64,000 nt of DNA from a virus (Duplodnaviria; Heunggongvirae; Uroviricota; Caudoviricetes): the IMG/VR virus record IMGVR_UViG_2799113165_000002, positions 1 through 64,000 of that record; one strand, written 5' to 3'. Below are positions 1 to 8,904 of this stretch, in pieces. Position 1 is the first letter of the stretch, and every line of letters starts with the position of its first letter. The notes below the pieces were generated by a model that saw nothing but the letters and a program-made list of their open reading frames with translations, made no database searches and was not told the DNA's origin. Position numbers and translations under genes: made by a program.

Positions 1-909
1 GGCGCCAAGGTCGATGATGTCCTGGAATGGGCCGCCGACGACCCCAACAACCCGCTGGCGCAGCAAGTCGCCAACGAGCAGGCCCACTACCTGGCTGCCC
101 CCGAACACCAGGAAGCGCTACGGGACCTGCCGGGACCGGGCCAGCATTTCACTGGGGATTCGTGGGCCGAGGCTAACCCTGAACTGGCCAAAACTACGGC
201 GCGGCTGGAAGGTTCACACGTCGCCGAGCTGTTCGGCGCCGACAATCCGGATGCCCCAGGGATCAAGGCATTCGACAATGCTGATCAAGCCAAGAACCTG
301 ATGGCCAACCTGGACCGCAACGAGGACGCCGCCAAGATCATCAATGGCGGTGCCTACCAGGAATACACGCACAATCTGTCCGAGGCCGCCCAAATGCCCA
401 CCGATACACCAGAACACCGAGCAATGCGAGATCATGAATTCAAAGTGGGCGGTCAGATCCAACAGGGTATGCTTGACGGCGCGATGGACGCCCTCAACAC
501 CAAGGAGGATGAGCCAGCTACCAAGAAGCTCGGTGACTGGATCACTGGCCAACTTGGTATCGACAAGGTGCTCAACCCGATTGAAGCCATCGACCAAGCA
601 CTCCAAGGCAATGGTAGTAACCCCGCGGATGTCGCCAACAAGATGGTCACCACTGGTCCGTACGGTTTCAGCGCCCTCGACAGCTATCGGGCCATTCTTG
701 ACGGGCTCATCCAATCGGACCCTAGCATTGCGAATGACAACGGCTTGGCTAGCTACATCACTGGCGGACAACTAGATCCGTTCAAAATTGGGGCGGACCC
801 TTCTGCTGAAACTGCTTTGAAGGCGGCCTTAGAACGACACAACTTCGATACAGATCACTGGATCACCCAGGAGTCGCTCGGCACCAATCAGGCGCATCGC
901 AAATGGTAA
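1..909 (+). CDS. C-terminal part of a larger protein of unknown function (5' end lies outside the window)
   Basis: Frame 1 is open from nt 1 with no stop and runs in frame into the annotated 301..909 ORF. No recognisable motifs. Confidence 0.45.
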   Translation, partial: GAKVDDVLEWAADDPNNPLAQQVANEQAHYLAAPEHQEALRDLPGPGQHFTGDSWAEANPELAKTTARLEGSHVAELFGADNPDAPGIKAFDNADQAKNLMANLDRNEDAAKIINGGAYQEYTHNLSEAAQMPTDTPEHRAMRDHEFKVGGQIQQGMLDGAMDALNTKEDEPATKKLGDWITGQLGIDKVLNPIEAIDQALQGNGSNPADVANKMVTTGPYGFSALDSYRAILDGLIQSDPSIANDNGLASYITGGQLDPFKIGADPSAETALKAALERHNFDTDHWITQESLGTNQAHRKW

Positions 910-4773: not shown

Positions 4774-5745
4774 TTACGCCGGATTGGTCAGCCCGGCGGA
4801 CGCAATAGCTGTCACCGAACCGCCCGCAGAATGTCCGGCCCACCGCCGCGATATCGCCCTTGCAGGTGGCCCGGCTGCGGCTGCCATCATCGCGGCGCGT
4901 TTCTCGTCGTCATCCACCGCCGTATAGATCTGGGTAGTGGCGACCGAGGAGTGCCCCAACAGCTCCTGCACGGCGCGGATGTCGCGCGTGCCGCGATAGG
5001 CCCTGGTGGCGAAACGGTGCCGGAGTTTGTGCATGGTCCACACTCCCGGCATCGCGGCGGCACAAAGAGTGCCGACCCAGCGCGGCGACAGATGCCCATC
5101 GTCGTCGCCCGGGAATAGGTACCCCTCCGTGCCTAGGCCCGGAGTGTGTCCGCCTGGCCCGGCCATGATCATCTCGGCCACGTAGTCCGAAATCGGAACT
5201 ATCCGCTGCTTGCCACCCTTGCCGTGCACCACCAACGAGTAACCGACCAGGTCCTCCACGAGGTCCTGGGTGTGCACCCGTGCCACCTCCCCGCGCCGTA
5301 GCCCAGCATCGTTGGCGAGATACAGCATCTCCATGGTGCGGTCGTCTGCCGCGAGAATCGATTCCTTCCAGACGCGGTCCGGCGCTGGTCTCGGTGTTGG
5401 TGGCTCGGGTGCGACGGCCTCCATTTGGGCCGCTGGGTTGGTCGGCAAGTGTCCCTTGGCGTACGCCCAGCTGAAAAACCCGTTAGTCGTGTTGCGATAA
5501 CTTCGACGAGTTTCCCTTTGCCAGTGTGCTTGCTCAGCAAACCAATCGACCAGAGTCTCCTCGGTCACTTCATGTGGTGCACCGCCTAGCCCCCGTGCTA
5601 GCCGATGCAGATGAGCCATACGCGTTTTGACCGTATCCAGAGACTTTCCATCAGCCTCCATGTAAGTCCGGTACTTCGCGATAATCCCTTGCCACGCTTC
5701 CGGTGCGGGTGTTGGTGCCGGGCCGGTCCCCCTCTTATTTGTCAT
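4774..5745 (-). CDS. int: tyrosine integrase (site-specific recombinase, phage integrase family)
   Basis: Catalytic-region motifs ARVHTQDL, HKLRHRFATRAY and LLGHSSVATTQIYT (R...HxxR...Y). An N-terminal SAM-like domain, and the gene sits beside a tRNA-like att core. Confidence 0.85.
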   Translation of the reverse strand: MTNKRGTGPAPTPAPEAWQGIIAKYRTYMEADGKSLDTVKTRMAHLHRLARGLGGAPHEVTEETLVDWFAEQAHWQRETRRSYRNTTNGFFSWAYAKGHLPTNPAAQMEAVAPEPPTPRPAPDRVWKESILAADDRTMEMLYLANDAGLRRGEVARVHTQDLVEDLVGYSLVVHGKGGKQRIVPISDYVAEMIMAGPGGHTPGLGTEGYLFPGDDDGHLSPRWVGTLCAAAMPGVWTMHKLRHRFATRAYRGTRDIRAVQELLGHSSVATTQIYTAVDDDEKRAAMMAAAAGPPARAISRRWAGHSAGGSVTAIASAGLTNPA

Positions 5746-5966
5746 TGAGTGCGTACCGTAAATCCCGCATAAAAATTCACAGATACTCCAAAGCTATTTG
5801 TTACCAAACTGAGAGATTCATTCACCTGGCAGACGAATCTGGCAAACATCCGTCGCCAGATTCCGTTGCTACGCAGCGGCGGTGTGGCGCCTGGTGGACC
5901 ACCGCCGTTCTCGCTGCTCAGAGAGGTCGGTAGGCTCAGTGTCTATGCAGGTCAGCGGGTTTCGAA

Positions 5967-6010
5967 CACCTAACAGAAGGTTAGGGGTTCGAATCCCTTC
6001 GGGCGCACCA
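5967..6010 (+). other. attP-like core: tRNA 3'-end fragment (T-arm AGGGG-TTCGAAT-CCCTT, acceptor 3' strand CGGGCGC, discriminator A, CCA)
   Basis: Canonical T-loop GGTTCGAATCC followed by an acceptor 3' strand and CCA. No complementary 5' acceptor strand (GCGCCCG) lies upstream, so this is a 3' fragment only. It overlaps the last ~13 codons of the repressor gene. A flanking 9-bp inverted repeat GAATCTGGC/GCCAGATTC at 5846-5876 is a candidate arm-type site. Confidence 0.55.
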
Positions 6011-6275
6011 CAGAAGGCCCGTCGCCCTCGGGCGGCTGCTCGCCTTCACCGTCGGCTAACCAACTCACTGGTACGCCACAGGCCAATGCCCAGGCATTAA
6101 GAACAATCTTCTTCGGGACGGTTCGGCCCTTTTCGCAATTGCCAATAACCGACCGGCCGACCCCCATCATTTCGGCTAATTGCCTTTGATCTAGTTGGGC
6201 TTCTTCCCGTGCGATCTGTAGGCGGTATCGCAGACGCATTGGGGGGATGTTCCCTGTTTCGTATGCAACGGTCAT
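5970..6275 (-). CDS. rep: HTH XRE-family immunity repressor (cI-like)
   Basis: Helix-turn-helix QLDQRQLAEMMGVGRSVIGNCEKGRTVPKKIVLNAW. Divergent from a Cro/Xis-like gene. C-terminal residues VRPKGFEPLTFC are encoded by the reverse complement of the tRNA-like core. Confidence 0.75.
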   Translation of the reverse strand: MTVAYETGNIPPMRLRYRLQIAREEAQLDQRQLAEMMGVGRSVIGNCEKGRTVPKKIVLNAWALACGVPVSWLADGEGEQPPEGDGPSVVRPKGFEPLTFC

Positions 6276-6437
6276 ATGCGCATGGTATGCGCGTACGCGC
6301 ACCCACGCAAGGTGGTGCAAATTGACCTAATCCGCAAACATCCCCTGATTGCTGCAAAGTCGACATAAGTTCACTAGCTGCGAAAACTTCCACAAGGGTG
6401 CTTGCGCGCACTATGCGAATATGCGCAAGATGGGCGT
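6266..6437. promoter_or_regulatory. divergent rep/cro promoter-operator region carrying TGCGCA-type palindromes
   Basis: ATGCGCAT (6273-6280) and the perfect 14-bp palindrome TGCGCGTACGCGCA (6286-6299) overlap the rep start. ATGCGAATATGCGCA lies at ~6413-6427. Confidence 0.4.
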
Positions 6438-6671
6438 ATGGCCGCACCCACCGCTGAGACACCTGAGCAGCCAGACGAGATCACCGTCACTAAGGCCGCG
6501 ACGACCTACAACGTCTCCAAACGGACTCTCCAGGCACTCGCCGTGTCCGGCCGCATCCCCGCCCGACTCGTCGGCAAGACCTACCTGCTCGACCACCAGG
6601 CCGTCCGCCTATATGCGCAGGCACGCCAGGCCACCCGCGACCTCAACGACTACGCCCAGGCCGCCTCATGA
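6438..6671 (+). CDS. HTH DNA-binding protein (excisionase/Cro-like)
   Basis: TVTKAATTYNVSKRTLQALAVSGRIPARLVGKTYLL resembles excisionase/MerR-type winged HTH. Transcribed divergently from rep. Confidence 0.55.
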   Translation: MAAPTAETPEQPDEITVTKAATTYNVSKRTLQALAVSGRIPARLVGKTYLLDHQAVRLYAQARQATRDLNDYAQAAS

Positions 6672-8547: not shown

Positions 8548-8904
8548 ATGGCGCGCATCCACGAACGCCCCGAGCTGCCAATGCATCTCGTCGACATCAC
8601 CGGCGACCACACCGTCGCCGAGGCCGCGCGCCTGCTATCCCTTGACCCGTCCATCAGTATCGGCCGCGACCAGCTATTCGACGCCATGGAGGACGAGGAC
8701 TGGATCTTCCGCGGCCGTGACCACCGATGGATCGCCTACGCCGAAGCCGTAACGCTCGGCTACCTCGCACTCCATGACGGAGGCGAATACCAAACGCCCA
8801 CAGGGCAAACCAAAGAACGACCCAAACAGATTTACCTAACCCCTAACGGGGTCGCGGAAATGCACTACCGCCTCGGCGGCAGCCAACAGCTAGCACTCAC
8901 CTGA
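8548..8904 (+). CDS. KilAC/ANT-domain (antirepressor C-terminal-like) protein
   Basis: Pattern AARLLSLD...GRDQLF...WIFRGRD.RWIAYAEAVTLGYLAL...IYLTPNGVAEMHYRLG resembles the KilA-C domain. Confidence 0.45.
   Translation: MARIHERPELPMHLVDITGDHTVAEAARLLSLDPSISIGRDQLFDAMEDEDWIFRGRDHRWIAYAEAVTLGYLALHDGGEYQTPTGQTKERPKQIYLTPNGVAEMHYRLGGSQQLALT

Follow-up and report, generated by a model that had tools for sequence, protein, structure and literature searches.

Does integration of the temperate phage represented by IMG/VR record IMGVR_UViG_2799113165_000002 truncate its immunity repressor and remove a destabilising tag, or does the repressor pass through integration practically unchanged? The question was raised by positions 4774–6437 of the window (the whole stretch of 64,000 nucleotides (nt) analysed here, positions 1 to 64,000 of that record), in which the phage attachment site, attP, lies inside the 3' end of rep, the gene for the repressor, close to the integrase gene, int. 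The original prediction placed this cassette with the integration-dependent immunity of phage BPs, in which integration shortens the repressor (Rep) and so switches immunity on. These positions hold the rep, attP and int cassette of a temperate phage of Mycobacterium abscessus belonging to Cluster MabK, a cluster for which integration-dependent immunity has already been published, so that the system itself is known. The prediction was partly supported, being right on the kind of system and on the attP state and wrong on the effect of integration on Rep in this copy. The locus is probably a tail-frameshift variant of the BPs-type system, with an untagged viral Rep and with the integration-dependent step lost or weakened. 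The features that carry this reading were as follows.

5970–6275, minus strand: immunity repressor gene rep, viral form of 101 residues with an XRE-type helix-turn-helix (HTH); the open reading frame (ORF) is open up to a TTG at 6320
5974–6010, plus strand: common core of attP, identical to the 3'-terminal 37 nt of the host tRNA-Arg(ACG) gene (Mab_t5006, attB-1), from the anticodon-stem 3' strand to CCA
5973–5974, no strand: 1-nt deletion at the boundary of P arm and core, CCTAA/CAGAAGG in the window and CCTAAC/CAGAAGG in sister alleles (the slash marks the boundary)
5869–5973, minus strand: stranded C-terminal remnant of Rep, LGVRNPLTCIDTEPTDLSEQRERRWSTRRHTAAA and a stop, 34 codons plus stop, with an ssrA-like -AAA end (...HTAAA, stop)
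4774–5745, minus strand: tyrosine integrase gene int, 323 residues, PF00589 (Phage_integrase), E=3e-23

The prophage junctions attL and attR were recovered by looking up neighbouring genes in public assemblies. In ten M. abscessus lysogens, the tRNA-Arg(ACG) at attL ended with 37 nt that agreed at 37 of 37 positions with the core, CAGAAGGTTAGGGGTTCGAATCCCTTCGGGCGCACCA, a longer identity than the original prediction had noted for its tRNA 3' end; GGGGTTCGAATCCC, the acceptor 3' strand and CCA occupied 5984–6010. At all ten loci, attL was composed of the host tRNA-Ser and tRNA-Arg(ACG) genes followed directly by rep, and the tRNA-Arg(ACG) was called intact by ARAGORN, which indicates that the core rebuilds the host tRNA gene. 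ARAGORN called no tRNA at the core in the window, because only the 3' part of the tRNA is present there, and Rfam gave nothing in the window at its gathering threshold. A 41-nt pattern over the site occurred once in the window, compared with 0 expected from shuffles. At attR, int and the P arm were followed by the core and then by host DNA (GCGCAC/TCATCC...) or by a second integrase-bearing element. Because the native downstream sequence reads GCGCAC/TCATCC, the identity of the core to an unoccupied attB is probably 35 base pairs (bp), 5974–6008, rather than 37. The host tRNA gene that the prediction had expected was found in this way, and the MabK integration site is published as attB-1, the tRNA-Arg gene Mab_t5006 (Table S1, PMC8092301).

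The C-terminus of Rep, ...VRPKGFEPLTFC followed by the stop, was encoded by the reverse complement of the core, just as the prediction had read it, with the last codons GTG CGC CCG AAG GGA TTC GAA CCC CTA ACC TTC TGT TAG. The core held the first two bases of the Cys codon; the third (5973) fell just outside it, as did the TAG stop (5970–5972), and rep ended only one codon past the core. In the prophage, the TG of the core was completed by the host base A to give TGA, and Rep ended with ...LTF at all ten attL loci (EPLTF and stop). Integration thus turns TGT-TAG into TGA in this copy, and the viral Rep of 101 residues (...LTFC) differed from the prophage Rep of 100 residues (...LTF) in a single residue, Cys101. 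The claim that integration truncates Rep and removes a destabilising tag failed on this point: recombination is predicted to give the ending ...LTF with the loss of Cys101 only, and the tail is stranded in the -1 frame. The original prediction had also reasoned that host identity extending past the rep stop would leave the protein unchanged; the identity fell short of this, by only one base.

An ssrA-like extension of 20–35 residues that integration could remove was absent from the window Rep and was present in the sister alleles (135 residues), prophiGD43A-5, Bipper and BPs. For the family, the viral-form extension is given as 20–35 residues (PMC8092301), and the published forms of phiGD43A-5 Rep are ...LTFWSVVRNPLTCIDTEPTDLVAHRSRRRAAELEADAA in the virus versus ...LTF in the prophage (Fig S1, PMC8092301). 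Among 34 clusters of database homologues, the C-termini were either ...TF, corresponding to prophage forms, or tails of 15–60 residues, often closing with -AA, -SA, -VA or -AS; none of the 34 ended with ...TFC. In-frame tails were found in prophiGD43A-5, Bipper gp51, UmaThurman gp36, BPs gp33 and about 20 database homologues.

These ends bear on the canonical explanation, in which the viral Rep is unstable or inactive and integration removes a destabilising terminal Cys or ...LTFC end. The architecture, the homology to BPs and the published description of MabK all fit it, the two forms of Rep do differ by one residue, and prophiT37-1, a prophage with the same allele, still excises and releases attP DNA. 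The difference of one residue is set against 20–35 in the family, however, no homologue ends with ...TFC, and the known -AAA tag is out of frame. Isogenic sister prophages moreover keep the tail of 35 residues, which marks the short form as a derived loss, and the canonical explanation is unlikely for this allele.

The origin of the short end was located at the left edge of the core, where the deletion of one base changed TGG TTA GGT (W L G) on the rep strand into TGT TAG. Relative to rep, the remnant of the tail was in the -1 frame, and it lacked its own start codon. The first 15 of its residues, VRNPLTCIDTEPTDL, matched the tail of phiGD43A-5 (...WSVVRNPLTCIDTEPTDL...EADAA, stop), and sister prophages read the homologous tail in frame. 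The long allele, ...GAACACCTAAC followed by CAGAAGG, was present at attR junctions in six assemblies (5 of the 7 attR junctions in the first look-up, and one assembly added later), and the short allele, ...GAACACCTAA followed by CAGAAGG, in the window, prophiT37-1, GCA_001215965.1 and GCA_900132975.1. These counts come from a sample of about ten assemblies, since similar places were collapsed in the look-up. Across 6 kilobases (kb) on the int side, the one-base indel was the sole difference between the groups with the long and the short allele. When attP was rebuilt from GCA_001215565.1 alone, Rep had 135 residues, ...LTFWLGVRNPL...HTAAA, ending with ...WLGVRNPLTCIDTEPTDLSEQRERRWSTRRHTAAA and the stop. 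BPs has TGT TTA GGA at the same place, which makes the long allele ancestral and the window allele a deletion. The window and prophiT37-1 were identical over 5306–6010; parallel deletion in the two lineages was not demonstrable, since this identity lets shared descent or recombination explain the allele. The two alleles can be told apart by the junction k-mers GAACACCTAACAGAAGGTTAGG and GAACACCTAACCAGAAGGTTAGG, and the presence of the junction CCTAACCAGAAGG in a short-allele attP, such as that of T37, would contradict the reading given here.

A missing base of this kind may also arise from an error in sequencing or assembly, or from circular closure of the record, in which case the real phage would have the tagged Rep of 135 residues. 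The difference is indeed a single base beside a 37-bp repeat that breaks assemblies (the contigs behind the loci L022 and L023 end in the core), and no public contig encodes the ...LTFC protein. Besides the window, however, at least three independent assemblies (OQ417969, GCA_001215965.1 and GCA_900132975.1) had the short allele, which sat at attR inside long contigs from independent projects with no closure involved. A change from CC to C is not a homopolymer-type error, and closure at the core cannot delete a base outside it. An error is accordingly a decidedly remote explanation of the short allele.

Least probable of all is a mixture of tagged and untagged protein, produced if ribosomal frameshifting to -1 or slippage during transcription still attached the tail to some Rep molecules. 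The -1 frame does hold an unbroken tail ORF that shares 76 nt with the rep frame. This overlap contained no X XXY YYZ slippery heptamer and no homopolymer run longer than CCCC, and programmed -1 frameshifting into the tail was rejected on these grounds. Since an in-frame ancestor lies one base away and is otherwise identical over 6 kb, an intact tail is expected from recency alone.

The GenBank record of prophiT37-1 requires comment, as its repressor is described by a misc_feature (join 1..392 and 76069..76210 of OQ417969.1, corresponding to window 5869–6365) that translates openly to ...HTAAA and the stop. The feature stays open only because translation passes over the 37-bp core twice, once at each end of the prophage record, so that 37 nt are added and the frame moves by one. 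Translated with one core, as any attP must have, the prophiT37-1 repressor ended with ...LTFC. The feature is therefore probably an annotation artefact. In prophiGD43A-5, the corresponding repressor feature omits the second core and is free of this inconsistency. A direct repeat of 8 bp, ACAGAAGG, flanks the core at 5973–5980 and 6010–6017 with a spacing of exactly 37 nt, which gives the reading with two cores a seamless appearance; the repeat is not found in prophiGD43A-5 and is probably fortuitous.

The identity of the phage and the attP state of the record were established from the flanks. The region was matched by megablast to prophiT37-1 (OQ417969, host M. abscessus T37), with 99.5% identity over int and the P arm and only about 91.6% on the rep side of the window. 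The rest of the window was colinear with prophiT37-1 and prophiGD43A-5 (MW584167), both of Cluster MabK, and membership of this cluster was borne out by an identity of 90–99% over the 50 kb that were compared and by a shared gene order and attB; prophiT37-1 has been assigned to Cluster MabK with attB-1 (PLoS One 2023, PMC9934374). To the left of the core, the window was 100% identical over 6 kb to the phage arm of attR (L021, L022; GCA_001215965.1, GCA_900132975.1), and to the right it was 100% identical over 10.3 kb to the phage arm of attL (L003, L007; GCA_001215565.1, GCA_900132825.1). As both flanks match these phage arms, the junction in the window is attP, in agreement with the configuration that the original prediction had deduced. 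The prophiT37-1 prophage record stops exactly at window 6010 and restarts at window 5974, which means that, in the window, a single copy of the core links the right and left ends of a prophage. With both attP and the region of terminase and structural genes (from about 45 kb) inside it, the window is a circular permutation of a genome of about 75 kb, not a cos-to-cos virion record.

Whether the junction was ever read from unintegrated or viral DNA is a separate matter, and it is the only one touched by the possibility that the record is the internal junction of a tandem prophage, or a core-bounded prophage contig circularised by computation. Prophage-sized contigs of 74–76 kb that start in the core do exist (L022, L023, L032) and look like direct terminal repeats, a circularised record would span attP and the terminase region as the window does, no contig in attP form was found in the collections searched, and M. 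abscessus is known to carry prophages in tandem at tRNA sites. Site-specific recombination is conservative, however, and a circle truly excised would therefore be identical in sequence to the junction seen here; attP of prophiT37-1 was readily amplified from cultures (PMC9934374). Such an origin of the junction has an appreciable chance, though less than an even one; virion DNA and an excised circle are the other candidate sources.

BPs is the archetype of integration-dependent immunity, reportedly the subject of Broussard et al. 2013, Mol Cell 49:237, and summarised in PMC9262239. When the cassette was compared with that of BPs (Cluster G), Rep was 51% identical to gp33 (E=1e-25) and Int was 60% identical to gp32 over 292 residues from Int residue 1 (E=2e-118). 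As in BPs, the neighbouring genes rep and int both point leftward, int lying downstream, a cro-like gene is transcribed divergently, and the attP core, inside the 3' end of rep, corresponds to a tRNA-Arg gene's 3' end; the two cores were identical at 33 of 35 positions. The leftward order of rep, core and int that had led the original prediction to BPs was thus upheld. Rep also reads the core in the same frame (VRP[KE]GFEP[LP]TF), and its prophage stop is a TGA made from a Cys codon, TGT, by a host base; in BPs, it is likewise the first base of the bacterial DNA that makes TGA out of a Cys codon (PMC9262239). The differences lay in the viral Rep, which gains 33 residues in BPs (136 versus 103) and one in the window (101 versus 100), because of the 1-nt deletion (TGT TTA GGA in BPs, TGT TAG G in the window). 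In addition, rep and int overlap in BPs and are 225 bp apart in the window, the window Int of 323 residues lacks the first ~45 residues of gp32, and the host is M. smegmatis for BPs and M. abscessus for the window phage.

Cluster MabK is among the clusters with attP inside rep (Dedrick et al. 2021, mBio, PMC8092301). The window shared with prophiGD43A-5 and prophiT37-1 a colinear genome, the same attB-1 and the same layout of rep, core and int, and it had the short allele in common with prophiT37-1. The published description, a viral tail of 35 residues ending with -DAA, applies to prophiGD43A-5 and fails for the allele of prophiT37-1 and the window. Bipper (Cluster Y, gp50 and gp51) and the Gordonia phage UmaThurman (gp35 and gp36) shared 35–38 identical bp of the same tRNA-Arg core, located inside an annotated immunity repressor and upstream of a tyrosine integrase, with Rep reading ...VRPKGFEPLTF and then C or W. 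Because these are sequenced virion genomes, their attP form is physical. Their Rep proteins carry in-frame tails of 30–32 residues, the Bipper tail ending with -DAA and the UmaThurman Int with -AAA, whereas the window Rep has none.

In the mechanism that we propose, Int recombines the core of 35–37 bp (5974–6010) with the 3' end of host tRNA-Arg(ACG), attB-1. The exchange, which is conservative, rebuilds the tRNA at attL and places a host base after TG, giving a prophage Rep of 100 residues that ends with ...LTF and TGA, and this Rep presumably represses the divergent early promoter, as may be expected from its family (PMC9262239, PMC8092301). With the ancestral allele, the unintegrated genome encodes a Rep of 135 residues with a tail of 35 residues ending with -AAA, which would target Rep for proteolysis, and immunity would hence need integration, as the family suggests. 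With the short allele, the viral Rep stops one codon past the core with the tail out of frame, so that the viral and prophage forms are practically the same protein. Rep made from unintegrated or excised DNA may then already be stable and active, and the integration-dependent step would be lost or strongly weakened. The layout of the cassette, its homology, the site of integration, the two ends of Rep and the allele polymorphism are demonstrated here, and we infer the stability and activity of the 101-residue Rep and the consequences for the life cycle. Lytic growth would have to be entered in a different way, one candidate being the antirepressor with an ANT domain, also encoded by MabK phages, whose gene lies 2.5 kb to the right. 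If the 101-residue Rep is stable, immunity could arise from unintegrated DNA, as with lambda CI, and an antirepressor gene is present in many lambdoid and P22-like phages. The components of the switch have no homology to those of lambda beyond the HTH fold, attP is still inside rep, and no establishment circuit of the CII/CIII type was identified in the window phage.

Several observations weigh against the loss of the integration-dependent step. prophiT37-1 carries the same short allele and its attP DNA is abundant in cultures and filtered supernatants (PMC9934374), so excision, and probably release, still occur, and no crippling effect of the allele is obvious. For the 101-residue form, stability and activity are themselves predictions, and a C-terminal ...TFC could in itself affect stability. 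The remnant of the tail is still an intact ORF of 34 codons ending with -AAA, which fits a very recent deletion and would also fit a continued use by another route. The deletion also alters the spacing of the left half-site, and its main effect could be on recombination and not on Rep. Finally, no contig on record encodes the ...LTFC form: the exact viral Rep sequences of 101 and 89 residues were not on record in protein look-ups, the pattern of P arm and core was absent from IMG/VR and from the representative genomes of GTDB, and the attP-spanning pattern was absent from JGI metagenomes. The tail-frameshift variant remains the probable reading of the locus.

Rep was further defined at both ends. 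The ORF at 5970–6320 on the minus strand encodes 116 residues and matched HTH_3 (E=2e-10) as well as HTH_19, HTH_31 and a phage CI repressor HTH. The start was assigned to the ATG at 6275 (MTVAYETGNIPP), which is aligned with the starts of Bipper gp51 and BPs gp33.

Integrase motifs with likely catalytic residues are predicted at GLRRGE (148–153), HGKGGK (174–179), HKLRHR (239–244), LLGH (262–265) and TQIY (271–274). The C-terminus of Int, ...GLTNPA, does not end with -AA; an internal AAMMAAAA stands where the UmaThurman Int ends. The protein was observed to run about 40 residues past this ...AAMMAAA motif, and some members with integration-dependent immunity are without -AA tags (PMC8092301). 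The start of int differs among sources, with 224 residues in the GenBank record of prophiT37-1 and 295 in public gene calls, compared with the ORF of 323 residues here; the deposited starts are probably too far downstream. The 225 bp that the original prediction gave between the tRNA-like core and int held for the distance from the int start to the rep stop, and the distance to the core was 228 bp.

Two further features lay between int and rep.

5746–5868, no strand: spacer from the tail stop to the int start, AT-rich at about 5750–5850, with a 9-bp inverted repeat
5957–5974 and 5980–5997, no strand: inverted repeat of 18 nt, imperfect (89% complementary), GGGTTTCGAACACCTAAC / GTTAGGGGTTCGAATCCC, with AGAAG between its arms where the core begins on the left

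The 18-nt repeat probably represents two inverted core-type half-sites of Int around the crossover region; these candidates, drawn from base pairing, fit the conserved L-G codons (TTAGG) beside the core in BPs and many homologues. The 1-nt deletion takes the innermost base of the left candidate half-site. Directly upstream of int, the G+C content was 0.41 at about 5750–5850 and 0.65 at 5850–5950, so that the AT-richer segment described earlier as 5760–5960 is confined to its left half. Consensus scans found no promoter-like or terminator-like site in the 225-bp gap that separates rep from int, the 5746–5868 spacer included; cotranscription of the two genes is a feature of BPs-type systems. The 9-bp inverted repeat GAATCTGGC/GCCAGATTC is real, and it is located at 5835–5843 and 5855–5863 instead of within 5846–5876; it may form an RNA hairpin (-16.3 kcal/mol). 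Its proposed role as an arm-type Int site was rejected, as the repeat is near chance (present in 1.6% of shuffles, with 0.14 per 228 bp predicted from the density in the window) and poorly conserved in prophiGD43A-5, and the BPs-type family is described as being without arm-type Int sites (PMC9262239).

The attachment site showed two variations among the lysogens. At position 10 of OQ417969.1 (window 5983), the attL core of prophiT37-1 had G, and its attR, the window and the ten other lysogens had A. The G gives a G-U pair instead of A-U in the tRNA T-stem and changes the prophage Rep to ...EPPTF and stop, which points to a polymorphism on the host side and to a crossover located rightward of this position. 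At six loci (L018, L020, L021, L026, L028 and L029), a second element with its own integrase of 387 residues was located about 0.1–1.6 kb past the attR core, and in L028 its genes also included those for capsid and tail. The tRNA-Arg site is occupied in tandem there, in agreement with the duplication of attB-1 in ATCC 19977 through a 16.5-kb insertion (Table S1 footnote, PMC8092301).

The remaining features of the region were found on the other side of rep.

6276–6437, no strand: divergent regulatory region between rep and the rightward early gene, with repeated ATATGCGCA / TATGCGC motifs over both start codons
6438–6671, plus strand: HTH_17 protein of 77 residues in the cro position (PF12728, E=8e-7 on the containing ORF 6402–6671)

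The ATATGCGCA / TATGCGC motifs are carried by a 32-nt direct repeat (6274–6305 and 6419–6450, 72% identical) and are also visible in prophiGD43A-5; from their placement, they are candidate Rep operators. The gene of the HTH_17 protein, which is of excisionase type, is annotated 'excise' in GenBank (OQ417969, MW584167) and was next to attL in all ten lysogens. BPs-type systems are characterised by the absence of a recombination directionality factor; this gene, for all its excisionase-type domain, occupies the position of cro. The antirepressor gene with an ANT domain (PF03374) was located at 8548–8904 on the plus strand, 2.5 kb to the right of attP, and was likewise present in all lysogens; it is a possible route of induction that does not need the Rep tag. 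Outside this region, ARAGORN called a tRNA-Thr(TGT) of 79 nt at 32012–32090 (plus strand), at which Rfam showed no tRNA at the gathering threshold. The table for prophiT37-1 gives 0 tRNAs, and the call may be a false positive or a degenerate phage tRNA.

The indel at the edge of the core may be more than a neutral lesion, namely a selected and possibly recurrent change that makes the repressor constitutively stable, such that excision is no longer inducing. We regard this as improbable; if true, such an indel could be a step of prophage domestication in clinical M. abscessus lineages. The repressor has been proposed for use as a selectable immunity marker (PMC8092301), and anyone cloning a 'viral' or 'prophage' repressor for this purpose should know which form the strain encodes; the prophiT37-1 feature appears to come from reading the core twice. 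What is new is a natural allele in which the degradation-tag tail is disconnected by one base, present in several clinical M. abscessus genomes including prophiT37-1. The isolates are natural isogenic pairs, the int-side 6 kb being otherwise identical and the viral Rep tagged in one and untagged in the other. The short allele is thereby a ready-made test of whether the tag is needed in the lysis–lysogeny decision and in spontaneous induction in M. abscessus.

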